From: Patescibacteria group bacterium
GTDB lineage: Bacteria > Patescibacteriota > Patescibacteriia > Patescibacteriales > XYC2-FULL-47-12
Assembly: GCA_041666885.1 (NCBI GenBank)
Contig: JBAYGB010000009.1
Location: forward strand, 1 to 13,677
Reading direction: 5' to 3'
DNA: 13,677 bases
Position numbers and translations under genes: made by a program. Below, one piece after another: positions 327-13,677 of this stretch. The stretch's first letter is position 1; the number at the start of each line of letters is the position of its first letter. Below the pieces are notes generated by a model that worked only from the letters and a program-made list of their open reading frames with translations, ran no database searches and had not been told where the DNA came from.

Positions 327-349
327 ATTATAGTTTAATTTATATTTAT

Positions 350-358
350 ATTATACCA
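350..358 (-). promoter_or_regulatory. Extended -10 promoter candidate (TGgTATAAT) for the pilin-like gene, 23 nt upstream of its ATG
   Basis: Reverse complement of 350-360 reads TATGGTATAAT. No SD precedes the ATG, so a short or near-leaderless mRNA is implied. The region is AT-rich, so a chance match is possible. Confidence 0.3.
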
Positions 359-360
359 TA

Positions 361-397
361 AAAATAAAAAAAGAGGGAAATGCTTAGCATATCCCTC
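361..397 (-). terminator. Rho-independent terminator for the SPFH/258-aa operon (minus strand)
   Basis: 25-nt near-perfect palindrome GAGGGAAATGCTTAGCATATCCCTC (373-397, 11 of 12 pairs). On the minus strand it is followed by TTTTTTTATTTT (reverse complement of 361-372), 25 nt downstream of the stop of the 422..1198 gene. Confidence 0.6.
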
Positions 398-421
398 ATT
401 AACATAAATTAAAGAACGTGT

Positions 422-1198
422 TTATTTTTTTCGCTCAACAGTGATGGTTGTTATTTCACCGCTAGCGGCTTCAATCCACAAAGTTCCTGTTATGTAGGCG
501 GAAGGGCAAATATTTTCAAATTTTCCATTTTTGAATATTTGCCAATACCCGCCCCAGTGCACACGGAGTTCTTTGTCCGTTTCCAAGCAAATTTTATCGC
601 CTGGAAAAATGATTTCCCCAACTCGGACGGTCGGCACATGATATTGGCGGCTGTCGTTGTCGTCAAATCCTTTGCCGATATAACTTGCCTCAAAGACCGT
701 ATAAGTTTTTGTAGAAAAAATATTAGGCGTAGTTTCTACAAAATTTCTTACAGCGCTCTTTGGATGCGCATCCGGCCAAACAGCGAAAAACAAGACACAT
801 GCTATCGCTATAATTCCTATAATGAAAAGAGGTTTTTTTATATTTTGTAAATTCCATACCCCCTCTTTCCAATTAATAAAACTTATAGCCAAAAAAGCTG
901 AAGTGGCCACTACTGCTCCCATCCATACGCGGCGATTATACATTGTTGCATCACCGGTATAGTAATAATACGCTAATACAAAAGTGCTTACGCAAGAGCA
1001 TATAATCAAGAGTATTTTTATTAAAGTTATTAGCGAAGACATGAGTGTCTTGATTAAAGTTATTAGCGAAGACATGACTGGAATTGGTTGCAGTTGCGGC
1101 GGCTGTGTTGAAGGCTCGGGAGTCGTTTGCGGTTGTGTAGAAGTCGAAGTTACAAGTGTATTTGCTGCCGAATTATTTGCGTGCCTTAGTATTTTCAT
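422..1198 (-). CDS. Membrane protein with Pro/Gln/Thr-rich N-terminus, 3 predicted TM helices and a ~115-aa C-terminal soluble domain; possible NfeD-like partner of the upstream SPFH protein
   Basis: 258-aa ORF with ATG at 1198. Only 3 nt separate it from the stop of the SPFH gene (TAA AAA ATG on the minus strand). Hydrophobic segments LIICSCVSTFVLAYYYY, VWMGAVVATSAFLAISFI and LFIIGIIAIACVLFFAVW. Contains an in-frame 33-bp tandem duplication. Confidence 0.6.
   Translation of the reverse strand: MKILRHANNSAANTLVTSTSTQPQTTPEPSTQPPQLQPIPVMSSLITLIKTLMSSLITLIKILLIICSCVSTFVLAYYYYTGDATMYNRRVWMGAVVATSAFLAISFINWKEGVWNLQNIKKPLFIIGIIAIACVLFFAVWPDAHPKSAVRNFVETTPNIFSTKTYTVFEASYIGKGFDDNDSRQYHVPTVRVGEIIFPGDKICLETDKELRVHWGGYWQIFKNGKFENICPSAYITGTLWIEAASGEITTITVERKK
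1018..1080 (-). repeat. 33-bp in-frame tandem duplication (2 copies) inside the 258-aa gene, encoding MSSLITLIKTL / MSSLITLIKIL
   Basis: ATTAAAGTTATTAGCGAAGACATGA is repeated with 33-nt spacing (1019-1047 and 1052-1080), differing at 1-2 positions. Confidence 0.85.
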
Positions 1199-1201
1199 TT
1201 T

Positions 1202-2803
1202 TTATTCCTCATTTTTTGTACTGTTAAAGCCAGCTCCAAGAGCGGCGCCAGTGGCAGCAAAACCAGGGTGTGATCCTGATTCACTTAAAAAGACATTTGC
1301 TCCGGTTTTTTCTAAACTAAGTAAAAACCGTAGGCGCTGAATGTGTTGTGCTGCTTCTTCTGGGGTTAAGTTACCTTTATTTTGGAGATTTTCCAGTTCT
1401 TTTGCTAAGGCAGTTGCTTTTGTTATTATCGCCTCAGCCTCAGCATTAGCAATAGTTACAATTCCTTTGCCTCTCTCCACTGCCGCTTGCGCGTCATTTA
1501 TTGCCAGTAATAAATTCCGACGCACACCCTTGTCTTCTTCTGAAATGATAATATCAGCAACGGCAATACTAGTTATCTCAACGCCCCACTCCGCGAGTTG
1601 TTTTTCAATGGTGCTTTTTTCGGATTCTTTTGGCACTTGAGCGTCTAATTTTACACCATTTAAAATCCTCTCTTTGCACAAATCTGTTCTTTGGGAGTTT
1701 GCCTCGTTTAATTTTAAGGTGCCGAGATAGCCTCTTAAAACTGAATCAATTTTGCCACGAGTGGCTTTTAAAATATCTTCCGTTCCATAAGTTGCTTTTT
1801 TTGAGTCAATTATTTTGATAAAAGCAGTAGCGATAATTTGCGCTGACCCATCTAAAAAGTCAACTTCATTTTTTAGCATCGGGTTTCCTTGGTCATCAGT
1901 AGTATATAGACCAAGAATTATTTCCCCTTTAAACACTAAATGTTGCAAAATGCAAACATTAAACCATGGAAAAATAAAGTACAAGCCAGACGCTAATGGC
2001 TTACCTATATATTGTCCGAGTTTTTCCACAATTAACTCGTGATTTTGAGGAACGACAACGCATCCTTTCCAAAAAGAAATAATATGAATAACGATAAAAA
2101 CTGTTATTCCCATAAGGATTTCATTGCTCTTTAGCCATTCAATTAATGGATTTAATTTGAATAGCCATGAGTTTTCATCGGGCACGGGAATATAATTTAT
2201 TACTGTTATGGGTGCAACAATCAAAAATAAAATAATCAGAGTAAAAATAATCCAAATGGAACCAGCGACAATTTCTACTCGTACTTTATCTTTACAATGA
2301 AAAAAAATAAGAGCTAATACTGCTAATACGAATCCTGCAGAAAGTATTGTAACTAACGTTTCCATTGGTCCACTAAAAAGTTTACCATAAAAAAAGATAA
2401 CAGCACTTATTAATATTGTTGTAATTAATGTTGTCGTAATACCAAGAAGTGCTTTAAAAATTTTTTCCTTGATTTCTTTTTTAGGACTTTGCAACACGAA
2501 TGTTTTGATAATATTTGTGTTGACAATATTCAAGGAGATATTTATTATCTCTCCCTTTTGTAAATGATTTAAAGGATAGTTATAAATACATCCATTATCA
2601 TCCGTGTCCACAGTTGTGCTAATTACATTTTCTTTGTTCTTTTGGAAAATTATAATTTGGCATTTTTGCCCCCTGTCAAAGTTGGTAATAGCTTGAATAT
2701 TAAGTTGAAAGTCGCCGTCTTTACCGGAAATTTCATATTTAATTTCGGTAAAAATTTCAGGGGCATTTCCTAATGGCTCTTGTATTTCTAGTCCTTTATT
2801 CAT
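1202..2803 (-). CDS. SPFH/band-7 (stomatin/HflKC/flotillin-like) domain protein with an unusual N-terminal ~115-aa extra domain and 4 TM helices
   Basis: 533-aa ORF. Strong SD AGAGGAGAAAAATC precedes ATG 2803. The C-terminal half carries SPFH hallmarks (PQNHELIVEKLGQYIGKPLASGLYFIFPWFNV..., and an Ala/Glu-rich coiled-coil tail AQAAVERGKGIVTIANAEAEAIITKATALAKELENLQ). Four hydrophobic helices lie between residues ~120 and 250. Confidence 0.8.
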   Translation of the reverse strand: MNKGLEIQEPLGNAPEIFTEIKYEISGKDGDFQLNIQAITNFDRGQKCQIIIFQKNKENVISTTVDTDDNGCIYNYPLNHLQKGEIINISLNIVNTNIIKTFVLQSPKKEIKEKIFKALLGITTTLITTILISAVIFFYGKLFSGPMETLVTILSAGFVLAVLALIFFHCKDKVRVEIVAGSIWIIFTLIILFLIVAPITVINYIPVPDENSWLFKLNPLIEWLKSNEILMGITVFIVIHIISFWKGCVVVPQNHELIVEKLGQYIGKPLASGLYFIFPWFNVCILQHLVFKGEIILGLYTTDDQGNPMLKNEVDFLDGSAQIIATAFIKIIDSKKATYGTEDILKATRGKIDSVLRGYLGTLKLNEANSQRTDLCKERILNGVKLDAQVPKESEKSTIEKQLAEWGVEITSIAVADIIISEEDKGVRRNLLLAINDAQAAVERGKGIVTIANAEAEAIITKATALAKELENLQNKGNLTPEEAAQHIQRLRFLLSLEKTGANVFLSESGSHPGFAATGAALGAGFNSTKNEE

Positions 2804-2835
2804 GATTTTTCTCCTCTAACTAACTTTTTTCTAAA

Positions 2836-2918
2836 TTGTCTCGTTCTGCTCCTGATTTGTTCTCTTCAATTACCAAGAAAACCTGTTAACCGAAAAGATC
2901 AGGAACATAATGAGACAA
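2836..2918. promoter_or_regulatory. Imperfect 21-bp inverted repeat (17/21) in the 5' leader of the SPFH gene
   Basis: TTGTCTCGTTCTGCTCCTGAT (2836-2856) versus the reverse complement of ATCAGGAACATAATGAGACAA (2898-2918), flanking a 41-bp loop. Confidence 0.5.
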
Positions 2919-2975
2919 TCTAGATATTTATGAAGGCTTTAATTGCCTTGTTTGTAAGGAGCAAGATAATATTAT

Positions 2976-3004
2976 ATAATAGCATAAATAAAAAAATATG
3001 TCAA
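2976..3004 (-). promoter_or_regulatory. Sigma70-like promoter candidate TTGACA-N17-TATTAT for the SPFH operon
   Basis: On the minus strand, TTGACA (reverse complement of 2999-3004), a 17-nt spacer, then TATTAT (reverse complement of 2976-2981). This would give a ~165-nt leader containing the inverted repeat. The region is AT-rich, so chance is possible. Confidence 0.35.
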
Positions 3005-3050
3005 TTTGTAGACATATTTTTTACTAAAATTAGCTATTTATTATGATTAT

Positions 3051-3440
3051 CTATGGCACGTATTTATTAAATTCTTTTTTGGCCGCTATCGTTTCCTTTA
3101 TTTTTGGCAGTTGTTTTAACCGCTTAAATATAATATAAGCCCAAAAACCTTGGCCTATCGCCCACAGTAAAAACCAAAAGCGGGAGGATAAAAACGGCAC
3201 TGATTCATAGCAGAAAAATAACAACAGCGCGCCGATGATTGTGCCGGTCAGCGCGAAGTTATAACCCGAAAGCCAAAGTTTCGCGTATAGCGTTTTTTTG
3301 TTTTGGTTATAAAATTTCCAGGTAACGACAATGGAGGCGAGAAAAATAATGACAATAACTATCAACGCATATTGCCACATTTTAGTTAACGGACCCGGGT
3401 ACAAGCTAAACCACAGTTTAAAAGTGAAGAAGTTGGACAT
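3051..3440 (-). CDS. Small hypothetical membrane protein (about 3 TM helices)
   Basis: 129-aa ORF with ATG at 3440, hydrophobic helices (ALIVIVIIFLASIVVTW, ALTGTIIGALLLFFCY, FWFLLWAIGQGFWAYIIF) and no overlapping alternative. Function unknown. Confidence 0.5.
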   Translation of the reverse strand: MSNFFTFKLWFSLYPGPLTKMWQYALIVIVIIFLASIVVTWKFYNQNKKTLYAKLWLSGYNFALTGTIIGALLLFFCYESVPFLSSRFWFLLWAIGQGFWAYIIFKRLKQLPKIKETIAAKKEFNKYVP

Positions 3441-3449
3441 AAGTTTAAT

Positions 3450-3540
3450 TATCTCAAATTATTCCAAAAACCAAATTATTTCAAAATCCCGCCTATGGGC
3501 GGGCATTTGAGATAGTTTGGAATAATTTGAAGTTTGATTT
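3450..3540. repeat. Repeat-armed palindromic element: CAAAT/CCAAA-type arm, GC hairpin CCCGCCTATGGGCGGG (3488-3503), complementary TTTGG/TTTGA-type arm. Possible minus-strand terminator for the methyltransferase gene
   Basis: Left arm TATCTCAAATTATTCCAAAAACCAAATTATTTCAAAAT. Right arm CATTTGAGATAGTTTGGAATAATTTGAAGTTTGATTT contains the reverse complements of the left-arm units. On the minus strand the hairpin is followed by ATTTTGAAATAATTTGGTTTTTGG. Confidence 0.6.
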
Positions 3541-3542
3541 TA

Positions 3543-4097
3543 TTAATGTTTCAAAAATACTATTCCGAAATGATACGCGCCGGCGGAAAATTCTTCCATC
3601 AGTTCCAGCCCGAACCGCTGGCAGACGGCGACCAAATTTTCTTTGTTCAAACGCTCTTCAATGGATGGTCCGAACGGAGTGGCGATTTTTTTCCAGTCAA
3701 TAACTAATAGTTTGCCGCCGCGCTTTAACAGGCGCGTTGCTTCCCGTATTATTTCCGACCGCTTGTTTGATTGGAATAATATATTAATCAAGAGGGCGAT
3801 GTCAAGAGAGGAGCTTTCAATTTTGGTCGCCCCGAAAATTTCCAGATTGGACCAAACGGTTTTCACCTGTTTGATATTTTCTTGATTCGCGCGCCGCTCA
3901 ATATTAGCCAAGACATCTTTTAAAATATCCACCGCGTAGACCAAGCCGTGTTCGCCGACAGCGGAAGCCATGGGAAACACAAAATGGCCGGTGCGGCCGC
4001 AACCCAAATCGCCGACCGTCATTCGTTCGCCCATTTGCGTTTTTGTAACGACTATTTGCGGGTCAATCAGCGCGTTTCCTCCTGTTACTTTGGACAT
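3543..4097 (-). CDS. Class I SAM-dependent methyltransferase (small, Methyltransf_11-like)
   Basis: 184 aa. Motif I VGDLGCGRTGHF (GxGxG), a post-I acidic residue (VYAVD) and LLKRGGKLLVIDW (motif III-like). Confidence 0.8.
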   Translation of the reverse strand: MSKVTGGNALIDPQIVVTKTQMGERMTVGDLGCGRTGHFVFPMASAVGEHGLVYAVDILKDVLANIERRANQENIKQVKTVWSNLEIFGATKIESSSLDIALLINILFQSNKRSEIIREATRLLKRGGKLLVIDWKKIATPFGPSIEERLNKENLVAVCQRFGLELMEEFSAGAYHFGIVFLKH

Positions 4098-4104
4098 AAA
4101 TTAG

Positions 4105-4170
4105 GAGCTAGTATTTAGCCCGCCTGCCAAAGTTATGGCTTTGCATCGCGGGCAGGTAGCTAGTATTTAG
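4105..4170. repeat. 13-bp direct repeats AGCTAGTATTTAG (4106-4118 and 4158-4170) flanking a 39-bp GC-rich segment related to palindromic family 1
   Basis: The enclosed segment CCCGCCTGCCAAAGTTATGGCTTTGCATCGCGGGCAGGT shares CCCGC / GGCAGG motifs with the family-1 elements. Confidence 0.6.
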
Positions 4171-4213
4171 TATACAACAAAAAAATTAAAATTAAAAATG
4201 AAACTCTGTATTT

Positions 4214-4329
4214 TGTCATTCCCGCGCAGGCGGGAATCCCTGCCTACCGGCAGGTCAAACTTATTTTATCATTAGATTCCCGCTTTCGCTCGCCTCGTTG
4301 AAGCTCCGGCGAAGCGGGCGGGAATGACA
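4214..4329. repeat. GC-rich palindromic element family 1, copy 1 (TGTCATTCCCGCG...CGGGAATGACA termini, 116 bp)
   Basis: TGTCATTCCCGCGCAGGCGGGAATC at the 5' end and GCGGGCGGGAATGACA at the 3' end. Internal extra hairpin CCTGCCTACCGGCAGG. Sits in the gap between the methyltransferase start and the rnhB stop. Confidence 0.85.
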
Positions 4330-4341
4330 GTAAAAAAACAC

Positions 4342-4953
4342 TTACAAAAGTTTTTTCACCGGTTTGAATGTTTTTCGGTGTATTTCGCACGGCCCGTATA
4401 ATTTTAACGCGTTCAAATGCAATTTTGTGCCGTAGCCTTTATGTTGGTTGAAAAAATAGCGGGGATATTTTAAATGCATTTCTTCCATCATCGCGTCGCG
4501 GGCGACTTTGGCGAGAATGGAGGCGGCGGCAATGGAAAAAATCAGGCCATCGCCGTTAACTATCGCTTTTTGCGGTAAAGAATAATTGGGCAAGGGCAGA
4601 TTGCCGTCTACCAAAATAATTTGCGGCTTTAATTTTAAAATTGAAAGCGCTTTTTTCATCGCCAAAAAACTCGCCTGTAAAATATTAATGCGATCAATCG
4701 TTTCGTGGTTGCACAAACCGATGCCAAAACCTGCGGCGCGCTCCATAATCAGTTTAGCCAAATCAGTTCGTCTGTCCGCGCTTAATTTTTTTGAGTCATT
4801 TACAGCGTTTAATTCCGCCGGCACTTCGGAAAAATCAAAAATCACCGCCGCAGCGACTACCGGTCCGGCGAGCGGTCCGCGGCCGGCCTCGTCAATGCCG
4901 GCAATTACATTATAACCTTGTTGTTTTAAGTTCGTTTCGTAGGAAAAATCCAT
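4342..4953 (-). CDS. rnhB: Ribonuclease HII
   Basis: GIDEAGRGPLAGPVVAAAVIFD and the VNDSKKL / LVDGN motifs are diagnostic of RNase HII. The ORF table starts at a TTG (4959). The first ATG (4953-4951) gives MDFSYETN..., which aligns better with RnhB N-termini. Confidence 0.9.
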   Translation of the reverse strand: MDFSYETNLKQQGYNVIAGIDEAGRGPLAGPVVAAAVIFDFSEVPAELNAVNDSKKLSADRRTDLAKLIMERAAGFGIGLCNHETIDRINILQASFLAMKKALSILKLKPQIILVDGNLPLPNYSLPQKAIVNGDGLIFSIAAASILAKVARDAMMEEMHLKYPRYFFNQHKGYGTKLHLNALKLYGPCEIHRKTFKPVKKLL

Positions 4954-4966
4954 AGACAATATCCAC

Positions 4967-5057
4967 TGTCATTCCCGCGAAAGCGGGAATCTCATGTTTT
5001 GATAATCTTTAGATTCCCGCTTCCTGCCTGCCGGTAGGCAAGGTCGCGGGAATGACA
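4967..5057. repeat. GC-rich palindromic element family 1, copy 2 (91 bp), filling the gap between rnhB and the 126-aa ORF
   Basis: TGTCATTCCCGCGAAAGCGGGAATC ... AGATTCCCGC ... CCTGCCTGCCGGTAGGCAAGG ... GTCGCGGGAATGACA. The internal CCTGCC..GGCAGG hairpin is inverted relative to copy 1. Confidence 0.85.
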
Positions 5058-5062
5058 ATTGA

Positions 5063-5443
5063 TTAAAACGGCCACCAACTTTTCTTCCTCGGTTGCTCTT
5101 TAACAACTTGCGCAAAGGATTCGTTTTTGGCGGCATCAGTTTGTCGTTCCGCCATCGCCTGCAAACGATCAAGTTCTTCTTGCACGAGCGGGCTGTCGTA
5201 TTCGCCCGCGTGCGCGGTTTGCCCTTCGTAGCGGGTTTGGCGCTGGTCCAAATGCAGATTAAAAGTTGTTTGTCCTCCTTGTTCAAAAATATAACAATGA
5301 AAGCGCGGATAAAAATCGCGCGTTAAGCGGCGCGCAAAACTTTCTTGTCCGCTTTGGCGATCATGAATATATGTATAGCCGGCGCGGCGGAGAAAATTTG
5401 CCGGAGATTCTTTTAAGTTTTGGGAAGAAATGGTAAGGCGCAT
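5063..5443 (-). CDS. Conserved-looking hypothetical protein of 126 aa with a basic/aromatic core (FLRRAGYTYIHDRQSGQESFARRL...YPRFHCYIFEQGG...FNLHLDQ)
   Basis: Clean ATG at 5443, protein-like composition, and no competing ORF. I do not recognise the family. The RDFYPRFH segment loosely resembles an Rx4-6H motif, which is weak evidence. Confidence 0.5.
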   Translation of the reverse strand: MRLTISSQNLKESPANFLRRAGYTYIHDRQSGQESFARRLTRDFYPRFHCYIFEQGGQTTFNLHLDQRQTRYEGQTAHAGEYDSPLVQEELDRLQAMAERQTDAAKNESFAQVVKEQPRKKSWWPF

Positions 5444-5494
5444 GTAATTAGTTTATAAAATTACTGTTAAATTGTTTTATTGTTAAATTATTAA

Positions 5495-5630
5495 CCCCTC
5501 CGTCCCGAGCGACTCGGGACACCTCCCCTTATAAAGGGGAGGAATAATGCGGAACAACGACAATGTTAAATCGGCATTTATTCTCCCTCTTTATAAGGGG
5601 GAGTGTCCGACGTCTCGGCGGACGAGGGGG
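5495..5630. repeat. About 136-bp GC/G-tract-rich imperfect palindrome with ~41-bp arms, each composed of two hairpins
   Basis: Arm 5502-5542 GTCCCGAGCGACTCGGGACACCTCCCCTTATAAAGGGGAGG. The reverse complement of arm 5583-5623 is GTCCGCCGAGACGTCGGACACTCCCCCTTATAAAGAGGGAG. The arms are separated by a 40-bp AT-rich centre. Runs of G of length 4 or more lie in and downstream of the right arm (5597-5675). Confidence 0.8.
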
Positions 5631-5708
5631 TCGGGAAACGCCGAAGGCAAAGGGGTTGAGGATTTAGAGGGGGTTAACAATGGAGCAATGGAACAATCTT
5701 ACTATTTG

Positions 5709-6635
5709 TTATTTTTCCAGCCACTTCCTCGCCGCCATCGCCGCCATACCGCCGAAACCGGCCGAAGTGATGGTTTGACGATAAATAAAATCGGCGCATT
5801 CGCCTGCGGCAAAGACACCTTCAATATTGGTGTAGACATTTTCCGTGACAGCGATATGACCTTCTTTTTCGTTTAAGGTTAACTGTCCTTTAAAAATTTC
5901 AGTATTGGGAATATGCCCGATAGCGAAAAACAAGCCATCAAGCGGCAATTCGGAAATCACATTCGTAACAATATTTTTTATTTTTACGCCGGTCAGTCTG
6001 GCTTCTCCCAGATATTCCGTTACTTCACTGTTTAAAATAAGCTCAATTTTTTTATTGGCGAACGTGCGCTGTTTCATAATTTCGCTCGCGCGGAATTCAT
6101 CGCGGCGGTGGATTAAATAAACTTTGTCGGCGAATTTGGTCAGAAAATTGCTTTCTTCCATCGCGCTGTCGCCGCCGCCGATAACGGCGACTGTCTTGCC
6201 GCGATAGAAAAAACCGTCACAAGTCGCGCAGATATGCAGGCCGCGCGCTAATAATTCTTTCTCTTTCGGCAGGTTTAAAGTGCGATAGCGGGAGCCGGTC
6301 GCGACAATCACCGTTCGCGCCTGATAAATTTCATTACCGACAAAAATTTTTTTCGGTTCTTCTGTAAAATCAACTTTGTCCGCCGCGGCGAATTTTATTT
6401 CCGCGCCGAAGCGTTCCGCTTGTTTTTGCATGTTTTGCATCAGTTGCGGGCCGGCGACTCCTTCCGGAAAACCGGGAAAATTTTCTATCACCGTAGTTGT
6501 TGTCGGCTGTCCGCCGGGTTGCGGGCCGGCTAAAACCAGAGGCGCGAGACCGGCGCGCGCGGCGTAAATCGCGGCAGTGTAACCGGCCGGTCCGGAGCCG
6601 ATGATAATGAGTTCGCGAATGTTGTCAGTAGACAT
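5709..6635 (-). CDS. trxB: Thioredoxin-disulfide reductase
   Basis: N-terminal FAD motif IIGSGPAGYTAAIYAARAG, redox-active CATCDG, and NADPH motif VAVIGGGDSAMEE. I chose ATG 6635 (MSTDNIRELIIIGSGPAG) over the ORF-table ATG 6677, which lies inside palindromic element copy 3. Confidence 0.92.
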   Translation of the reverse strand: MSTDNIRELIIIGSGPAGYTAAIYAARAGLAPLVLAGPQPGGQPTTTTVIENFPGFPEGVAGPQLMQNMQKQAERFGAEIKFAAADKVDFTEEPKKIFVGNEIYQARTVIVATGSRYRTLNLPKEKELLARGLHICATCDGFFYRGKTVAVIGGGDSAMEESNFLTKFADKVYLIHRRDEFRASEIMKQRTFANKKIELILNSEVTEYLGEARLTGVKIKNIVTNVISELPLDGLFFAIGHIPNTEIFKGQLTLNEKEGHIAVTENVYTNIEGVFAAGECADFIYRQTITSAGFGGMAAMAARKWLEK

Positions 6636-6671
6636 AAAGATAATTGTTAATTGTGTTAAACATTTAAATAT

Positions 6672-6735
6672 TGTCATTCCCGCGCAGGCGAGAATCTACT
6701 CTTACTCTTAGATTTCCGCCTGCGCGGGAATGACA
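6672..6735. repeat. GC-rich palindromic element family 1, copy 3 (minimal 64-bp form) in the divergent trxB/infB promoter region
   Basis: TGTCATTCCCGCGCAGGCGAGAATC, then TACTCTTACTCTT, then GATTTCCGCCTGCGCGGGAATGACA. The arms are near-perfect reverse complements (24/25). The centre is a TACTCTT 7-mer x2. Confidence 0.85.
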
Positions 6736-6792
6736 GGATAAAAAAATTCTATATCAATATCATATCTTAACTAAACTTTTTAATCAATTTTC

Positions 6793-6821
6793 TTGACTTT
6801 AAACCGGTTTTCAATTAAAGT
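6793..6821 (+). promoter_or_regulatory. Sigma70-like promoter candidate TTGACT-N17-TAAAGT for infB, implying a very short leader
   Basis: TTGACT 6793-6798, a 17-nt spacer, TAAAGT 6816-6821, and only 9 nt to the ATG at 6831. No SD. Confidence 0.35.
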
Positions 6822-6830
6822 AAAAATACT

Positions 6831-8813
6831 ATGAATATAACCGAATTAGCCAGAAGATTAAAACTCACCACGAGCGAGTTGTTTGACACTTTGCCTCAGC
6901 TCGGTTTTGACATTGGCCGGCGGGCGATTAAAATTGACGACCATATCGCTTATAAAATCGTCGCCAACTGGTCAATTTACAAAAAACAGCTGGACGCCAA
7001 AAAAATCGCCGCGGGTGAAATGGCGGCGCCGGTCGCCAATCCGGCCGACAAAAAAACGATTACCATCCCGCCGCAAATCGTGGTGCGGGATTTTGCCGCG
7101 CTAGCCGGTTTGAACGTCAGCAAGGTTTTGACGGAATTGATGAAAAACGGAATTTTTATTTCCATGAATGAAAAAATAGATTTTGACGCCGCGTCCATTA
7201 TCGGCGCGGATTTGAATTTGGAAGTGCTTTTGGACGAGACGGCCGACATCAGCGGACAAAGCGACAACAAATTAAAAAATATCATGGATAAACAGGACAA
7301 AGCGCATTTGGAAGCGCGGCCGCCGGTAGTGGTGGTAATGGGACACGTTGACCATGGTAAAACCAAACTCTTGGACGCCATTCGTGAAACCAACGTAGTG
7401 GCGGGGGAAGCGGGCGGCATTACGCAGCATATCGGCGCGTACCAAATTGAACAGCGGGGTCAGACGATAACTTTCATTGATACTCCCGGACACGAAGTTT
7501 TTACCGCCATGCGCAGCCGCGGAGCGAAAGTGGCGGATGTCGCGATTTTGGTCGTGGCCGCCGATGACGGCGTAAAACCGCAAACCGTTGAAGCGTATCA
7601 TATTATTGAACAGGCAAAAATTCCGTTTGTCGTCGCGATTAATAAAATTGACAAACCCGAGGCGGATATTGACCGCGTCAAAAGCGAATTGTCCAATCAG
7701 TTGCACATTACGCCTGATGATTGGGGTGGAAAAACAATGTGCGTGCCGATTTCCGCCCGAGATAAAATCGGCATTGATAAACTTTTAGACGCGGTATTGT
7801 TTTTAACCGAAATGGAAAAAGAAAAAATTATCGCGAACCCGAATGCGTCGGCGGTCGGCACGGTGGTGGAATCAAACGTGGATAAAGGCGAAGGGCCGGT
7901 CGCGACGATTTTAATTCAAAACGGCACTCTGCGCGCCGGTGAGATTCTTTGTTTTAACAATGAACCTTTGGGCCGGGTGCGCATCATGAAAAATTATCGG
8001 GGAGAGATAGTGCCAGTTGCCACGCCGGCCATGCCGGTTAGAATATCCGGCTTAAAATCCAGCCCGAGCATCGGCGATATTGTGGAAGTTGTTTGCGCCG
8101 GGGAAACGGCGACCGGCAGCGGCAAAAAAATGCGCTTGGGTAAAATTAAAAAAGGAAATTTTAAATCGGCGACGACGTCAACCGCCGCCTCGGCGGAAAA
8201 TAATGCCAGCGTAAAGTTTGTTAATATTGTTATTCGTACGGATGTCTTGGGTTCCGTTGAAGCGATTGAAGAGGCGTTGGAAAAATTGGGCACGGCGGAG
8301 GTAAAAGTAAAAATAATAAAAAAAGGTTTGGGAAACTTTACGGAAAGCGATGTGCATACGGCCTTCGCGGCCAAAGCCTGCGTTTTGGGATTTAACGCGG
8401 AAATCAATCATGCGGTCAATCTGCTCGCGCGTGAAAAAGGCGTGGAAGTAAAAAGTTTTTCCATTATTTACGAATTGGTTGATTTTATTAAACAAAAAAT
8501 GGAAGTGTTATCCCCCAAACCGGTCGTCAGAAAAGGATTGGGAACGATAAAAGTTTTAGCCATTTTTAAAACCGGCAATAACAGCCAAATCATCGGCGGT
8601 AAAGTGGAAAGCGGATTGATTGAACTTAACGCCAAAATTGAAGCGGTGCGCGATGATATGGTTATCGCGATTGGCGAATTGGTTGGGTTGCAGTCAGGAA
8701 AACAAAGCGTCGTTGATGTTGCGAGCGGGCAGGAATGCGGCGTGGAATTCAAGGGCGAACCGGTGATTAAGTCGGGCGATGTACTGAGAGTATATAAAGA
8801 AATTACGAATTAA
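6831..8813 (+). CDS. infB: Translation initiation factor IF-2
   Basis: IF2_N-like N-terminus. G-domain motifs [12 protein letters not shown] (G1), DTPGHEVF (G3) and AINKID (G4), followed by IF-2 domain II through C2. 660 aa. Confidence 0.95.
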
Positions 8814-8960
8814 GAATTAAGAATTACGAATGAGGAATTAAGAATGCAGAATGCAAATTAAGTTAAAAGTGAAAAGTTAAAATTGTTTGCCTCGCCGCAG
8901 CTTCTAGCGAAGGCGGGTTAAATTGTTTGAAAATTAGAAATTGAAAATTGAAAATTTTTA
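8800..8960. repeat. Degenerate heptamer array (GAATTAA/GAATGCA/TTAAAAG x ~12), then bulged hairpin 8895-8916 flanked by direct repeats GTTAAA(A)TTGTTTG, then (GAAAATT)x4
   Basis: 7-nt periodicity is visible from 8807 to 8889 and from 8929 to 8956. The infB stop codon is part of the first GAATTAA unit. The TTG at 8941 used by the ORF caller for rbfA lies inside the GAAAATT array. Confidence 0.8.
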
Positions 8961-8964
8961 TCAT

Positions 8965-9312
8965 ATGCCCCGAAGAATAGAACAAGTTAATGAAATGCTG
9001 CGCGCGGAAATTGCGCTCGCGATCGCGCGCGAACTGGATTTTTCGGACGCGCTTTTGACCGTGACCAAGGTTGACTGCGCGCGCGAACTGGACGAGGCGA
9101 GAGTCTGGATCTCGGTTTTGCCGGATAATCGCGCCGGCTCGGCGATGCAAGCTTTGCGCCGCGGACAGAGCCTGATTCGACAGGCAATCGGCAAAAAAAT
9201 TTCCTGGCGCCGCTTACCGCGGTTTATTTTTATTTTTGACGATACGGAAAAGCACGCCGCCGTCATTGATAATATTTTTAAAGAAATTAACCAAGCAGAA
9301 ATTAATGGCTAA
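8965..9312 (+). CDS. rbfA: Ribosome-binding factor A
   Basis: MPRRIEQVNEMLRAEIALAIAREL...VTKVDCARELDEARVWISVL aligns with the RbfA N-terminal consensus (RxxRVxExLxxEIAxIL...VTxVxxSxDLxxAxVYVx). I chose ATG 8965 over the upstream TTG 8941. Confidence 0.85.
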   Translation: MPRRIEQVNEMLRAEIALAIARELDFSDALLTVTKVDCARELDEARVWISVLPDNRAGSAMQALRRGQSLIRQAIGKKISWRRLPRFIFIFDDTEKHAAVIDNIFKEINQAEING

Positions 9313-10267
9313 CGATTCCGTCTATCAAGAAATAATAAACAAGCTCGCGACCGCTCGCAAAGTTTTTTTGGCCACGCATGAAAACCCGGACGGCGACGCG
9401 GTCGCTTCCATCTGCGCTTTTGCCGAATGGCTTAGACTATTGGGAAAAGAATTTTATCTTTTTTGCGCGGACGAGCCGGAAGACGGCTTTCATTTTTTGC
9501 CGCAAATGGAAAAAATAAATCGGCGGATGGAAGAAATTGATTTTGACGATTTTGATTTGATTATCGTGCTGGATTGCGGCGCTTTGCACCGGACAAAAAT
9601 TGAAACGGAGATAAAGGCAAGCAATTTGGTAATCATCAATATTGACCATCATATTTCCAATAATCAATTCGGCAGCATAAATTTAGTTGACGCCGAAGCC
9701 GCCTCCACCACGCAGTTGTTATATGAACTTTTTAAATTCAGCAAATTGGAAATCAGCCGCCAGCTCGCAAGTTGCATTCTGACCGGCATTATTACCGACT
9801 CCGGCAGTTTCGCTTATGCGGCAACTAACGCCAATACTTTCAGTGTGGCGAGTGAAATGTTGACGCGGGGCGCGAATGTGCGCGCGATTGTAAATTACAC
9901 GGAAAAAAATAAAAATTTAGCCACTTTAAAAGCGTGGGGCTATGCTTTGAGCCAGATGCATTACAATGCCGATTACGATATTGCTTATACCGTCATCACG
10001 CAGGCGGATTTGATAAAATTCAACATCACCAAGCAGGATTTGGAAGGTTTGGCTAGTTTTTTAAATAATTTGAAAGATGCTAAAATAATATTGGTGCTGT
10101 ACGAACTCGGAGACGGGCGGGTAAAAGGCAGTTTGCGCACGAACTTAATCAACGTTGATGTCGCAAAATTAGCCCAAGTATTTGGCGGCGGCGGGCACAG
10201 GAAAGCGGCGGGATTTGAAGTTGAAGGAAAATTGGCGCAGGCGGGCGGTGGTTGGAGAATTGAATAA
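9305..10267 (+). CDS. nrnA: DHH/DHHA1 family phosphoesterase, NrnA-like (oligoribonuclease / pAp phosphatase)
   Basis: DHH motifs HENPDGDAVAS, VLDCG, NIDHH and the DHHA1 motif GGGGHRKAAGF. The ATG at 9305 overlaps the rbfA stop (ATGGCTAA, 8-nt overlap), so the two are translationally coupled. The ORF-table start 9236 is a TTG extension. Confidence 0.85.
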   Translation: MANDSVYQEIINKLATARKVFLATHENPDGDAVASICAFAEWLRLLGKEFYLFCADEPEDGFHFLPQMEKINRRMEEIDFDDFDLIIVLDCGALHRTKIETEIKASNLVIINIDHHISNNQFGSINLVDAEAASTTQLLYELFKFSKLEISRQLASCILTGIITDSGSFAYAATNANTFSVASEMLTRGANVRAIVNYTEKNKNLATLKAWGYALSQMHYNADYDIAYTVITQADLIKFNITKQDLEGLASFLNNLKDAKIILVLYELGDGRVKGSLRTNLINVDVAKLAQVFGGGGHRKAAGFEVEGKLAQAGGGWRIE

Positions 10268-10364
10268 AATAGTTAATCAGTTGAACAGTTAATTAGTTAA
10301 ATAGTTTTTGATATTTTATAACAACTAATTAACTATTCAACTAAGTAACTAATCAACTAAAACT
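10268..10364. repeat. Repeat-armed palindromic element filling the whole nrnA-clpP gap: (AGTTRAWY)x5 left arm, TTTGATATTTTAT centre, (NYAACTAA)x5 right arm
   Basis: Left arm AGTTAATC AGTTGAAC AGTTAATT AGTTAAAT AGTTTTTG. Right arm ACAACTAA TTAACTAT TCAACTAA GTAACTAA TCAACTAA AACTATG. The arms are approximate reverse complements with period 8. Confidence 0.8.
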
Positions 10365-10943
10365 ATGCCTCTAATTCCCACAGTCATTGAAAAATCGCAA
10401 TTCGGCGAACGGGCGTACGATATTTATTCCCGTTTGCTTAAAGACCGCATTATTTTTTTGGGCGAACCGGTCACGGACGTGGTCGCGAACATTATTATCG
10501 CCCAGTTTTTATTTTTGGACGCGCAAGACGGCACGAAAGATATTAAATTTTATATCAACACTCCGGGCGGTTCAGTTACCGCCGGCATGGCGATTTATGA
10601 TACGATGCAATATGTAAAATCGGATGTGTCCACTATTTGCGTCGGCATGGCCGCGAGCATGGGCGCAATTTTACTCGCTTCCGGCGCGGCGGGTAAACGG
10701 TTTGCTTTGCCGAACGCGGAAGTGATGATCCATCAAATCATGGGCGGCGCTGAAGGACAGGCGGTGGATATCAAAATTCAGGCCGAGCATATTTTAAAAT
10801 TAAAAGACAAGTTGAATCAGATTTTAGCCAAACATACCGGCCAAAAAATTCCGACCATTGAGCGCGATACCGACCGTGATTATTTTATGAGCGCGGAAGA
10901 GGCGAAAAAATACGGGATCGTTGATAAAATTATTGCAAAGTAA
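10365..10943 (+). CDS. clpP: ATP-dependent Clp protease proteolytic subunit
   Basis: [16 protein letters not shown], catalytic Ser in GMAASMGA, His in MIHQ, and the C-terminal Asp region. 192 aa. Confidence 0.95.
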
Positions 10944-10969
10944 TTTTGATAAATTTCCATGAATTATGA

Positions 10970-10996
10970 GGCGGCGTCACTTTGATGTCGCCTTTT
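10970..10996 (+). terminator. Rho-independent terminator after clpP
   Basis: 9-bp stem GGCGGCGTC/GATGTCGCC (two G-U wobbles), 5-nt loop, followed by TTTTGTT. Confidence 0.5.
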
Positions 10997-10999
10997 GTT

Positions 11000-11113
11000 A
11001 GATATTGGATATTAAGATATTAGGATATTGCGCTGCGAAAGCAAGAAGTTTATTATGATGATAATACTATTTCCATGCGTTGCGAATATTCAATATCCTA
11101 ATATTCAATATCT
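11000..11113. repeat. Repeat-armed palindromic element, GGATATT family, copy A (clpP-lgt gap)
   Basis: Left arm AGATATT GGATATT AAGATATT AGGATATT (11000-11029). Reverse complement of right arm 11084-11113 is AGATATT GAATATT AGGATATT GAATATT. A 54-bp unique centre separates them. The right arm ends 12 nt before the lgt ATG. Confidence 0.85.
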
Positions 11114-11125
11114 TGTATTACAATT

Positions 11126-12025
11126 ATGAATTTTTTACATTTTTATCTTCCCCAGCCAATTTTATTTCACTTAGGCGTGATAAATGTTTATTGGTACGGT
11201 TTTTTAATGGCGCTGGCGATACTCGCCGGATTGCTCGTGAGCGTGCGCGTGGCCAAGTGGCACGGAGTTGATAAAGAAATTATTTATGATTTATTTTTTT
11301 ACGTTGTTATCGCCGGCTTTATCGGCGCGCGTATTTTTTATATTTTGTATAACCCGGAATATTTTTGGCAGCATCCGTTAGATATTTTTAAAATTTGGCA
11401 AGGCGGAATTGCGATTCACGGCGCGTTGATTTTTGGAATTTTGGCAATAATTTGGTTTGTGCGGCGCATGCCGCCGATAGAGACGTTGCATTGCAACGTC
11501 TCTACGATGAAAAACAATTTTTGGTTGTTGTCCGCAATCATCGCGCCCGGTCTTGCGCTGGGACAGGCGATTGGTCGGTGGGGTAATTATTTTAATCAGG
11601 AATTATTCGGCCGACCGACTGATTTGCCCTGGGGCATTCCGATTGATTTGATAAATCGACCCGCCGGATTTGAACAGTTTACTTATTTTCACCCAACGTT
11701 TTTGTATGAGAGCGTTGGAGATTTAACGATATTCATATTATTATTATTGACGCATTGGTTTTTTGCGCATAATACAAGAAACGGGGAACGAGTAACAAGT
11801 AACGGGCAAAAACCGTTAAATAATCATTCTCTCATTACTCATTACTCATTACTCATTACTTTATATTTATTACTGTATTCTTTATTGCGTTTTATGATTG
11901 AATTTTTGCGCATTGACCCGACCGCCGGCAGTATTTTTGGGGTGCGGGCGACGATGGGGCTGAGTTTGTTAATAGGCGTTGGCGTGTTATTATATTGGCG
12001 CGCCATATTTTATTTAAAAAGATGA
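11126..12025 (+). CDS. lgt: Prolipoprotein diacylglyceryl transferase, carrying an in-frame repeat-element insertion in a C-terminal loop
   Basis: N-terminal VYWYGFLMALAIL and the Lgt signature GQAIGRWGNYFNQELFGRPTDLPWGIPID. Compared with E. coli Lgt, about 23 extra residues (AHNTRNGERVTSNGQKPLNNHSLITHYSLLITLY) lie between the sixth helix and the LRFMIEFLR segment. Confidence 0.88.
   Translation: MNFLHFYLPQPILFHLGVINVYWYGFLMALAILAGLLVSVRVAKWHGVDKEIIYDLFFYVVIAGFIGARIFYILYNPEYFWQHPLDIFKIWQGGIAIHGALIFGILAIIWFVRRMPPIETLHCNVSTMKNNFWLLSAIIAPGLALGQAIGRWGNYFNQELFGRPTDLPWGIPIDLINRPAGFEQFTYFHPTFLYESVGDLTIFILLLLTHWFFAHNTRNGERVTSNGQKPLNNHSLITHYSLLITLYLLLYSLLRFMIEFLRIDPTAGSIFGVRATMGLSLLIGVGVLLYWRAIFYLKR
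11790..11874. repeat. Intragenic repeat-armed palindromic element inside lgt: (AGTAACR)x2, then hairpin AACGG-GCAAAAA-CCGTT, then (CATTACT)x4
   Basis: AGTAACA 11791-11797 and AGTAACG 11798-11804. Centre hairpin 11801-11817. CATTACT at 11833, 11840, 11847 and 11854 (reverse complement AGTAATG), plus degenerate units TCATTCT and TATTACT on either side. The reading frame is preserved and encodes LITHYSLLITLY. Confidence 0.85.
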
Positions 12026-12054
12026 CCGCTTGCTTTTTTTCTTCAACCTTGATA

Positions 12055-12063
12055 TGATACAAT
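12055..12063 (+). promoter_or_regulatory. Extended -10 candidate TGaTACAAT upstream of rpsT
   Basis: TGATACAAT about 86 nt upstream of the rpsT ATG. AT-rich context, so weak evidence. Confidence 0.25.
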
Positions 12064-12095
12064 AAGTTAAAATAATAAATCTAATAAAAATTTAA

Positions 12096-12138
12096 GGCGG
12101 GTAGCGGCAGTCGCGGGATTGCTTCGCTCGCAATGACA
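12096..12138. repeat. Truncated half-copy of palindromic family 1 in the rpsT 5' leader
   Basis: GGCGGGTAGCGGCAGTCGCGGGATTGCTTCGCTCGCAATGACA shares TTCGCTCGC and GCGGGAATGACA-like ends with copy 1. It ends 10 nt before the rpsT ATG and can form a GC hairpin. Confidence 0.6.
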
Positions 12139-12148
12139 GATTAAAATT

Positions 12149-12415
12149 ATGCCTAACATCAAAGCGGCCATGAAAGCCTTGCGCAAAAGCAAAAAAGTAA
12201 AAATAACGAACGACGCCGTTAAAAACAACATTGGACGGCTGATCAAAAAATCGCGGAAAGCGATTGACGCTAAAGCCGATACCGCCAAAGATTTGGTTCA
12301 GCAAACGGTAAAAGCGCTGGATAAAGCGGTGCAGAAAAAAATATTAAAGCCGAACACCGGCAACCGCAAGAAATCAAGATTGATGAAAAAACTCAACCAG
12401 ATAATCGCAAAATAA
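12149..12415 (+). CDS. rpsT: 30S ribosomal protein S20
   Basis: 88 aa, Lys/Ala-rich: MPNIKAAMKALRKSKKVKITNDAVKNNIGRLIKK...LKPNTGNRKKSRLMKKLNQI, which matches the S20 consensus (MANxKSAxKRxR...N...RKKS...). It lies divergent to holA, as in many bacteria. Confidence 0.9.
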   Translation: MPNIKAAMKALRKSKKVKITNDAVKNNIGRLIKKSRKAIDAKADTAKDLVQQTVKALDKAVQKKILKPNTGNRKKSRLMKKLNQIIAK

Positions 12416-12433
12416 CAAAGTTTGTTAAAATAA

Positions 12434-12466
12434 AAAAATCCCCTAGAAATAAGGGATTTTTTATTT
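12434..12466. terminator. Strong bidirectional rho-independent terminator after rpsT
   Basis: AAAAATCCC-CTAGAAATAA-GGGATTTTT followed by TATTT. An A-run upstream and a T-run downstream allow function on both strands (rpsT on plus, holA on minus). Confidence 0.7.
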
Positions 12467-12545
12467 AATATTAGGATATTGGATATTAAGATATTAAATG
12501 CCGCGATTTTGAAAGTTCTGTCGATATCATAATATCCTAATATCC
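12467..12545. repeat. Repeat-armed palindromic element, GGATATT family, copy B (rpsT-holA gap)
   Basis: Left arm AATATT AGGATATT GGATATT AAGATATT. Reverse complement of right arm 12524-12545 is CTGGATATT AGGATATT ATGATAT. It shares an identical 24-mer GATATTGGATATTAAGATATTA with copy A. The centre differs (AAATGCCGCGATTTTGAAAGTTCTGTCG). Confidence 0.85.
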
Positions 12546-12576
12546 AGTCTCTGGCAGAAAAAAGCAGAAGTATTGA

Positions 12577-13593
12577 TTAAGGATTAGCGGCGAATAATAA
12601 AGTTAGGCCGGTTAATCCGTCGCCCTGTCCGGTTTTTATCTTGTAATCAAGCTCGGTAATTTGCGTTAGAATATTTTTTAAATAATCCATATTGAAATTG
12701 CGCGTTTGCGGCATGGTTTTTTGCACGACAAACGGATGCAGTTTGAGCGCGGCGGCGATTTGCGCCGGCGCTTGTCCGGCAATAGTTTGTTCTTTGATTT
12801 GCAAGATTATTTTAAACTGGCGGGAAATCATCGCCATAATTTGCTGCAAACTCGCGCCCGCCTCCAATTCGTTTTCCAATAGGGAAAAAAATAAAGCCTT
12901 GTTTTTATTGCCCAGCGCGTCGGTCAGCGCGAAAATGTTTTCTTCCGCCGCGCCTTTAATCAGTTGCCTTGCGTCTGCCAAAGTTATTTCCGCGCCGCCT
13001 TGCTTTTGGGTAAAATTAATCAATTTTTCCAATTCATTATGCGCTAACCACAGGTTCGATCCGGTCGCGCTGATTAACAAACTTAACGCCTGCGGATTGA
13101 CGCGCAAACCGGCCTTGCTCGCGTATTGTTTAATCCAAGTTTGCAGTTTTAAATTATCCAAGCCGTTGAACTGCTCGGAAAATTTTTGCGTTTTTAAATA
13201 CTCAAATAGTTTTTTGCGCGCCACAGTCAACTTGCCTGCCGAAGAGGCAGGTTTTTTTTCGCCATACTTTTTGCTTTCCAGGTTTCTCGCTTCATAAAAA
13301 ATCAACGAATTTTCATTATTATCTTTTTCTAATTTTTGCAGGAAAGCCAAAAGCGGTTTGAAAATCGTTTCTTCTTTGTGGCTGAATAAATCGGAAATGA
13401 TCAGCAGACGTTTTTCCGCCAAAAGCGAGCCGGAAGAAATTTTGCCGTTTATTTCATCCAGATTGGTTTTACTCCCGTCAATACTGACAACGTTGTTGCC
13501 TTGCGGGTCGCGCTGTTTTTTAAATTGTTCAATCAGCGCATTCAATTTTTGCCGGCTGCGGAAATTATCGGCGCCGTAAAGAAAGATAATCAC
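12577..13593 (-). CDS. holA: DNA polymerase III delta subunit
   Basis: N-terminus (V/M)IIFLYGADNFRSRQKL... matches the HolA consensus (iyllyGeD.fl). 338 aa with helical C-terminal domains. The start codon is GTG at 13593, and no in-frame ATG lies nearby. The gene abuts the GAATTAA array. Confidence 0.8.
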   Translation of the reverse strand: MIIFLYGADNFRSRQKLNALIEQFKKQRDPQGNNVVSIDGSKTNLDEINGKISSGSLLAEKRLLIISDLFSHKEETIFKPLLAFLQKLEKDNNENSLIFYEARNLESKKYGEKKPASSAGKLTVARKKLFEYLKTQKFSEQFNGLDNLKLQTWIKQYASKAGLRVNPQALSLLISATGSNLWLAHNELEKLINFTQKQGGAEITLADARQLIKGAAEENIFALTDALGNKNKALFFSLLENELEAGASLQQIMAMISRQFKIILQIKEQTIAGQAPAQIAAALKLHPFVVQKTMPQTRNFNMDYLKNILTQITELDYKIKTGQGDGLTGLTLLFAANP

Positions 13594-13677
13594 AAATTAA
13601 GAATTAAGAATTAAGAATTAAGAATTAAGAATTAAGAATTAAGAATTAAGAATTAAGAATTAAGAATTAAGAATTAA
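13594..13677. repeat. Perfect heptamer microsatellite (GAATTAA)x11 preceded by AAATTAA, immediately upstream of the holA start; the array runs off the window end
   Basis: 13601-13677 is exactly 11 x GAATTAA with no mismatch. It is the same unit as the degenerate array after infB (8807-8889). Confidence 0.95.

Follow-up and report, generated by a model that had tools for sequence, protein, structure and literature searches.

The lgt gene in a 13,677-nt stretch of a Patescibacteria group bacterium (positions 1–13,677 of the metagenome contig JBAYGB010000009.1; hereafter the window) carries an in-frame quasi-palindromic element composed of two heptamer arms around a unique centre. The element is probably an old, vertically inherited and tolerated member of a lineage-wide class of heptamer arrays, lodged in a permissive cytoplasmic turn of the Lgt protein. 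A preliminary description of the window had recognized a heptamer-armed palindrome in frame inside lgt, which is confirmed here (81 nt make 27 codons and the open reading frame, ORF, is full length). It had placed the palindrome at 11790–11874; an element is indeed present there, and its true bounds are 11780–11860. The gene and the parts of the element are listed below (TM, transmembrane helix).

11126–12025, forward strand: lgt coding sequence, 299 aa plus stop, intact, with a PF01790 profile match
11780–11860, forward strand: whole in-frame quasi-palindromic element, 81 nt, 27 codons, residues 219–245 (NGERVTSNGQKPLNNHSLITHYSLLIT)
11780–11807, forward strand: left arm, four degenerate heptamers AACGGGG AACGAGT AACAAGT AACGGGC (consensus AACGRGT)
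11800–11818, forward strand: inner stem-loop TAACGGGCAAAAACCGTTA of 6 bp, where left arm and centre meet
11808–11832, forward strand: unique centre, 25 nt, coding QKPLNNHS; tip of the cytoplasmic TM5–TM6 hairpin, low model confidence
11833–11860, forward strand: right arm, (CATTACT)4, perfect, coding HYSLLIT, open in all three frames

The ORF at 11126–12025 matches the Pfam LGT family (PF01790) at E 8.5e-62 and encodes a full-length prolipoprotein diacylglyceryl transferase, whose sole solved-structure match, both by sequence and by fold, is Escherichia coli Lgt (5AZB). Its signature motif occupies residues 150–162, and Y251, R255, E259 and R262, corresponding to the catalytic network Y235, R239, E243 and R246 of E. 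coli Lgt (PMC4728403), are all retained. Alignment with the E. coli protein, a check proposed in the preliminary description, maps the element to the RKPRPMG turn between TM5 and TM6. The E. coli crystal structure has the TM4–TM5 head domain and loop L6–7 on the periplasmic side and a positively charged cytoplasmic face (PMC4728403); the TM5–TM6 turn is therefore cytoplasmic. It lies far from the catalytic network, and the active site faces the cell exterior. An AlphaFold model of the window Lgt (predicted local distance difference test score, pLDDT, 80.7) has helices at residues 191–226 and 233–261 and a low-confidence tip at 222–229, and the element is predicted to be translated as a ~24-residue extension of both helices into the cytoplasm. 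The spacing between the FLYES and RFxxEFLR anchors is 66 residues, compared with 42–50 in most Lgts. The ~23 added residues proposed earlier thus hold against the shortest relatives and E. coli (~24) and are too many against a typical Patescibacterial Lgt (~16). Likewise, the element does lie in a loop, as had been stated, but not just after the signature motif, which is ~65 residues away. The residues encoded by the right arm align with the native N-terminal start of TM6 in other Lgts.

Tandem Repeats Finder reports the right arm at 11831–11860 with period 7, 4.3 copies and 100% match, in agreement with the four perfect CATTACT units described earlier, and chance would not place even (CATTACT)3 in the window (0/200 shuffles). 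The arms are Watson-Crick complementary at 19 of 27 positions in the best register, so the element is quasi-palindromic only; over 21 nt, arm complementarity reaches 71%, whereas shuffled flanks do not exceed 62%. Folding energies are −14.4 kcal/mol for the sense RNA (z −3.6) and −6.2 kcal/mol for the sense DNA (z −2.5). The antisense RNA (window 11778–11866, minus strand) folds better, at −23.4 kcal/mol (z −4.8), because C·A mismatches between the arms turn into G·U pairs. Hairpin folding is above chance yet modest, not strong. A scan of the window against Rfam 15 gave no family at gathering score, and the only matches at the element were hairpins at chance level (E 0.9). No antisense promoter or ORF is evident on the minus strand at 11778–11866; a reading of the element as an intragenic terminator or antisense promoter was dropped, since the matches were at consensus level only and there is no plus-strand terminator. 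As regards insertion footprints, no direct repeat abuts 11780–11860. A 17-nt repeat at 11754–11770 and 11897–11913 is not adjacent to the element, and its second copy encodes the conserved EFLRID motif. An origin of the paired arrays as target-site duplications, i.e., 7/8-bp footprints of insertion and excision, was rejected because the arms are inverted, not direct.

The relatives of the window Lgt are mostly Falkowbacteria. The closest genome with DNA, L001, is syntenic with the window (infB-rbfA-DHH-clpP-lgt...rpsT-holA), and the two lgt genes share 74% nucleotide identity (57% at third codon positions). L001 is the only relative with the same element: its CATTACT units are likewise perfect and four in number, its left arm and centre have diverged, and the inner stem-loop is kept as an AACC/GGTT pairing. 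A neighbour-joining tree of Lgt places the window and L001 in a sub-clade with L003–L008, all of which carry 48–60 residues at the site; the sister of this sub-clade, L009, has the short form. The preliminary description had called for lgt alleles without the insert among relatives, and a short turn is found in L009/P0021 and P0028, as in E. coli. Within the sub-clade, L003–L006 carry heptamer-armed hairpins, with arms (GACGAGG)/(GTTACGT) in L003, (AACGCAW)/(ATGTTAT) in L004 and (AACGCAT)n/(GTTATGC)n in L005 (−35.6 kcal/mol, z −5.4). L008 carries a degenerate or decayed hairpin, and L007 has a GC-rich hairpin of another kind (GAACAGGGCAATGCCCTGTTC) without heptamer arms. Altogether, 8 of 11 orthologous elements fold with z −2.6 to −6.5, and the values are −0.7 in L003 and −1.1 in L004. 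A second clade (L021, L029, L031, L069, L042, L026 and L033) has direct heptamer arrays at the site, which add no length and encode peptides such as SYELRVTSY. Across relatives, the fallback proposal of the preliminary description, a hypervariable in-frame insertion site in a conserved enzyme, is therefore correct.

The left arm is degenerate, presumably because the complement of the right arm carries stop codons. Translation of a heptamer array runs through each of the three frames in turn. The right-arm units CATTACT, GTTACGT, ATGTTAT, GTTATGC and GTTATGT are stop-free in all frames, and the complements of right-arm units contain TAA (AATGAGT also contains TGA). In the window, a perfect left arm (AATGAGT)n would read AAT GAG TAA TGA, with in-frame stops, and the T-to-G and T-to-C changes of the left arm (GAA and CGA are observed) remove exactly the in-frame TAA and TGA. 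The period-7 match reported by Tandem Repeats Finder is higher for the right than for the left arm in L005 (80 vs 71%) and L006 (85 vs 68%), and for the window, L001 and L003 the program calls an array in the right arm alone. L004 departs from this rule: two alternating units make its left arm a perfect 14-nt repeat, and its right arm matches at 96%. The stop-codon pattern shows selection on the reading frame throughout. The ORF would in this way impose the arm asymmetry: the stop-free CATTACT orientation could be homogenized to perfection, and the orientation with TAA or TGA would have to stay degenerate.

The element belongs to a wider set of tandem arrays. Among the tandem repeats of 618 kb of low-GC loci, the commonest period is 7 (69 arrays), followed by 8 (36), 9 (29) and 6 (16), and many arrays have an inverted partner within 160 nt. 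The units are diverse (48 canonical units among 76 period-7 arrays); what the arrays have in common is period and architecture, not sequence. The same architecture had been noted in intergenic regions of the window and is found there at 10267–10360, 11000–11111 and 12468–12551. Array density per 100 kb reaches 35 in non-coding DNA; for lgt it is 18.5 and for the remaining ORFs 4.8. Within lgt, arrays of period 7, 8 or 14 occur at window residues 215–245 (~28 arrays in ~24 loci), at 123–128, at 44 and in the C-terminal tail, leaving out a few weak rows and the T-rich low-complexity arrays of 8 or 14 nt that lie within TM helices. All of these positions are cytoplasmic and none lies in the periplasmic head, a distribution that a filter by tolerance would produce. 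In the Uhrbacteria locus L111, three related heptamer arrays (CTACCCA at 3143–3172, CAAGCTA/CCAGCTA at 3385–3419 and CTACAAG at 3672–3700) occupy three different cytoplasmic loops of the same Lgt.

Co-variation between the arms was assessed in an alignment of 7 orthologous elements with RNAalifold, using shuffles (n = 500) and slid controls. The consensus is a 15-pair helix between the arms, in which 9 of the 15 pairs have changed on both sides. The fraction of paired cells is 85.7%, against 76.1 ± 2.5 in shuffles (0/500), and the covariation score is 0.483, against 0.281 in shuffles (0/500) and at most 0.27 in the slid controls. The signal comes chiefly from a unit-level change, ..GAGT versus ..GCAT, in several units and both arms. 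It represents few independent events in 7 related sequences, but each event needs co-ordinated substitutions. Mutagenesis by template switching at quasi-palindromes is established from work in E. coli, T4 and yeast and allows an imperfect inverted repeat to have one of its arms copied onto the other without selection. We infer that the arms evolve in concert, each through slippage and the pair through template switching. Template switching of this kind matches the co-ordinated unit changes in both arms and is a mutational mechanism, not an element family; here it would be the presumed agent.

A second palindrome lies in frame in the TM3–TM4 cytoplasmic loop of the same gene, referred to below as site 1.

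11478–11504, forward strand: site-1 palindrome, 27 nt, TAGAGACGTTGCA T TGCAACGTCTCTA, with perfect 13-nt arms

Its pattern was found only in the window's own contig among the loci searched. At this loop, relatives have different and far longer palindromic inserts, of a GTCATTCCCGCG...GGGAATGAC family and a CCCCTC...AAAGGGGAGG-like kind. A GTCATTCYCGCG...CGCGGGAATGAC family is found in frame in the TM3–TM4 loop of L003-type lgt and is intergenic in the window at 4216–4340, 4961–5063 and 6663–6744, where the GC-rich copies read GTCATTCCCGCG..GGGAATC ... GATTCCCGC..CGCGGGAATGAC. An octamer-armed hairpin replaces the window's GC-rich palindromic copy in the trxB-infB spacer of L001. In the lgt of L029 (2190–2280) and L052 (270–330), heptamer or octamer arrays enclose a small GC hairpin, CCTGCC..CCGG..GGCAGG. 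Its occurrence within intergenic repeats of the window as well (4240–4262 and 5022–5046) suggests a small element landing in hairpin centres.

The probable history of a tolerated, inherited quasi-palindrome can be put together as follows. The arrays would be generated and homogenized by replication slippage, and the likeness of the arms may be kept up by intrastrand template switching at the quasi-palindrome. Persistence in lgt would be permitted by the short cytoplasmic TM5–TM6 turn, remote from the active site, which could accommodate extra residues. Slippage by a single unit within the lgt tract would be a null mutation and presumably purged by selection. Several observations weigh against this account. 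The longest identical run between the window and L001 lgt is the right arm (31 nt), which, together with the arm co-variation, could instead reflect selection for nucleic-acid structure; the run sits within a generally well-conserved 3' block of lgt, for which reason no array-specific nucleotide constraint is claimed. The inserted peptide is ~67% conserved between the window and L001, about as much as the whole protein (71%), so it does not evolve like sequence free of constraint. Arrays at the TM5–TM6 site in distant clades have a GTTAYGN core in common, which could stem from independent origins filtered by coding constraint, from targeting or from ancient descent. Hairpin strength across orthologues is uneven (z −0.7 to −6.5), and maintenance is therefore not uniform. 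Finally, other copies of the CATTACT unit or the centre are absent from the 15.6-kb contig and from 173 loci, the orthologue excepted, which lends mobility of the element no support.

The frame arithmetic of the right arm had led the preliminary description to propose a slipped-strand on/off switch. That arithmetic is borne out by computed products: gain or loss of one or two units gives proteins of 253–261 aa that lack R255, E259, R262 and TM7, and a change of three units stays in frame. As a contingency locus, CATTACT slippage would toggle lgt between open states (1, 4, 7... units) and a truncated null, yielding a subpopulation without lipoprotein lipidation. The non-triplet unit and the perfect tract speak for this, as do the heptamer phase variation known in Haemophilus influenzae (PMC8262952) and the intergenic heptamer arrays of the same lineage, which differ in copy number between the window and L001 (8 vs 4 and 12 vs 9 units), so that slippage does take place. 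It occurs in intergenic arrays but is not seen in the coding copy. Moreover, the tract has 4 units, against 13–24 in the documented switch at the hmw1A promoter of H. influenzae (PMC8262952), and is too short to count as hypermutable; the H. influenzae tract, besides, is located in a promoter, outside the reading frame. Neither regex anchors nor tblastn segments in two frames revealed a frameshift in any of 162 lgt loci, the ~24 with arrays at the site included, as judged from consensus assemblies only. Strain variants of the window lgt were found neither in the protein collection (a one-member cluster) nor in metagenome contigs (best 65% identity). Two sister elements do have them: 8 full-length variants of the L003-type gene (cluster P0003, 92–98% identical) and 4 of the L004-type gene (cluster P0004), and in all 12 there are point changes and the length of the site is constant. 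L001 keeps 4 units despite 26% nucleotide divergence, although this is only weak counter-evidence by itself since no counts other than 1, 4, 7... preserve the frame. Imperfect arrays (68–85% match), and therefore poor slippage substrates, are frequent among the orthologues, yet they are retained, so slippage-proneness is not what is conserved. Furthermore, lgt serves a housekeeping function and does not belong to the surface or host-interaction genes. A contingency locus is accordingly very improbable, and the element probably has no switching role; were it otherwise, an uncultured minimal bacterium would toggle lipoprotein lipidation, and the evidence speaks against it. A 143-aa "truncated Lgt" (P0125) was rejected as an OFF allele. 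Its contig, L174 (European Nucleotide Archive ERZ4902888, 1756 nt, 1.5x coverage), is identical to L003 as far as the site-1 dispersed repeat extends and unrelated to it from there on, which gave the spurious protein; L174 is probably an assembly chimera at the dispersed repeat.

Two other explanations differ from tolerated inheritance in what they take to be the cause of the element, and both are unlikely. One holds that a nucleic-acid structure is selected, whether an mRNA hairpin, lying between the segments that code for TM5 and TM6, that paces translation or marks a processing site, or a DNA or antisense RNA recognized by a protein, the extra residues being a side effect. The co-variation above shuffled and slid controls, the 8 of 11 elements that fold better than shuffles, the markedly better folding of the antisense strand and a right arm with no synonymous position changed relative to L001 all point in this direction, and arrays of the class often stand directly 5' of start codons, as do TAACTGA repeats (PMC4679880). 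Nevertheless, the hairpin on the mRNA strand is weak, with its C·A mismatches, and has effectively decayed in L003 and L004; the unevenness among orthologues argues against uniformly strong selection on structure. No Rfam family, plus-strand terminator or convincing antisense promoter was found at the element, template switching can give co-variation without selection, the conserved right arm belongs to a generally conserved block, and sister lineages and most Lgts lack the element altogether. The other explanation, about equally doubtful, is that a mobile hairpin family, similar to miniature inverted-repeat transposable elements or mobilized as single strands, repeatedly targets this site in lgt, the different units being separate arrivals. 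It would account for the different units found at one site in distant clades, including Uhrbacteria with CTACMAG-related arrays in three Lgt loops, and for arm families common to separate loci of one genome (window 11000–11029 and 12468–12496; the ATTGYTNN family in L001). It also agrees with the GC-rich hairpins nested inside arrays at the site in L029 and L052 and with the dispersed repeats at site 1 of relatives. However, neither a target-site duplication nor a transposase nor a second copy of the CATTACT unit was found in the 15.6-kb contig and the 173 loci, apart from the orthologue. In addition, the elements of the window sub-clade align, have an AACG...GTTA frame in common and follow the gene tree, and the arrays of the second clade replace native sequence without added length, for which local slippage is a better fit.

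A bolder generalization, which we put forward only tentatively, is that Patescibacteria harbour an undescribed class of "sliding" quasi-palindromes with tandem 7/8-nt arms, which fill intergenic spacers, repeatedly colonize or arise in cytoplasmic loops of membrane proteins such as Lgt, are translated there, and evolve with their arms in concert, a unit change extending to every copy and to both arms. No description of such repeats was found in the literature on Patescibacteria or the Candidate Phyla Radiation, the coverage of which was incomplete, so this is not proof of absence. If such a class exists, it would imply a dedicated copying mechanism or selection for DNA or RNA structure within coding sequence, and it would be a Patescibacterial counterpart, built on another construction principle, of the Rickettsia palindromic elements (RPEs; Ogata et al. 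2000, 2002). According to the account in PMC10969869, RPEs are in-frame palindromes of ~150 bp in housekeeping genes, where they add a peptide segment at fold-compatible positions, absent from orthologues elsewhere, and grouped in families of recognizably similar copies. The lgt element resembles them in being palindromic, in frame and at a fold-compatible turn, with orthologues that lack the insert, and at lgt site 1 of relatives a dispersed family likewise occurs both between genes and in frame. Unlike RPEs, the element measures 81 nt, has tandem-heptamer arms, is without a second sequence copy in the contig and loci searched, and comes from Patescibacteria, where other loci match it in architecture and period, not in sequence.

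Heptamer arrays are known from other bacteria. The GGGAATC heptamer simple sequence repeats of Xanthomonas and the short tandemly repeated repetitive (STRR) arrays of Nostoc and Calothrix often form convergent pairs with a possible stem-loop or cruciform; their type is preserved between related genomes, their length is variable, and heptamers are over-represented among longer repeats (PMC4692102). The two convergent 4-unit arrays of the lgt element, 25 nt apart, are similar to the Xanthomonas GGGAATC pairs. In contrast to the Xanthomonas arrays, which are intergenic and G-rich with one dominant unit per genome, the units here are diverse and AT-rich and the lgt copy is translated. TAACTGA repeats of Beggiatoaceae, Cyanobacteria and Bacteroidetes have stops in three frames in the forward orientation, and ORFs hold only the reverse one, which encodes the 7-residue periodic LSVISYQ; intragenic copies lie at the protein periphery, many arrays stand just 5' of start codons, and they are almost never inverted, with one indirect repeat reported (PMC4679880). 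The same orientation-dependent coding logic explains the perfect right arm and the degenerate left arm of the lgt element. However, TAACTGA repeats have one fixed unit and are almost never inverted, whereas the arrays of this lineage are paired and vary in unit. The hmw1A/hmw2A tract of H. influenzae is a promoter tract that modulates adhesin transcription and varies in copy number among isolates (PMC8262952). The lgt tract likewise consists of a tandem 7-bp unit able to change copy number by slippage, but unlike the 13–24 units of that promoter it has 4, lies in a housekeeping ORF and shows no detected variation. REP (repetitive extragenic palindromic) elements, mobilized by REP-associated tyrosine transposases (RAYTs), are presented in PMC3733652 as 20–40-bp palindromes with a GTAG or CGTC tag at one end. 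Neither end of 11780–11860 carries such a tag, and the arms are tandem heptamers.

The lgt element is a case of heptamer hairpin repeats being translated in a conserved membrane enzyme and recurring at one cytoplasmic turn across many Patescibacterial lineages. The arrays provide a natural map of insertion-tolerant sites in Lgt, and the three-frame stop content of the repeat unit decides which arm can remain perfect. The element is also a tractable system for following how an inverted repeat evolves in concert while constrained by coding. For annotation and protein-family work, a 15–40-residue "insert" in a Patescibacterial protein may be repeat DNA rather than a functional domain, and such repeats also produce assembly chimeras such as L174.

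Several further arrays occupy the spacers of the window. (AATTAAG)12 at 13595–13677, continuing in L002 at 12470–12555, fills the space from the murI stop to the GTG start of holA, stopping 2 nt short of that codon; no Shine-Dalgarno sequence is visible. The syntenic array upstream of holA in L001 is (AATTTTC)9. Other arrays also end just 5' of start codons, namely those of clpP, lgt and rbfA. In the infB-rbfA spacer (window 8801–8956, L001 3751–3830), the number of AATTAMG units is 8 versus 4; the window has, in addition, a GC-rich hairpin at ~8888–8918 and AAGTTAA repeats without counterpart in L001, and a TTGAAAA array adjoining rbfA is kept in both. The elements at 11000–11111 and 12468–12551, which flank lgt-rpsT, have one arm sequence in common, a 23-nt higher-order repeat, ATATTGG ATATTAAG ATATTAGG, and unrelated centres. 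In the clpP-lgt spacer (window 10940–11130, L001 5845–6005), the centre motif TTTCYATGCGTTGCG is conserved and the octamer arms are wholly different (GATATTRR in the window, ATTGCTCC in L001), as if swapped on both sides. A GC-rich palindrome of ~140 nt (window 5461–5697, L001 451–636), with arms at 5494–5547 and 5578–5631, is flanked by inverted octamer arrays (TGTTAAAT / AACAATGG) and is conserved in L001 at almost every base; public gene calls treat it as non-coding, and Rfam gives no match.

Among viral contigs, (CATTACT)4 gave 10 matches, in unrelated phages. In two of them, L170 (6252–8442) and L171 (4851–7062), inverted (CATTACT)n arrays flank a segment of ~2.1 kb that, judged from its ORFs alone without a domain search, appears to encode the small and large terminase subunits.

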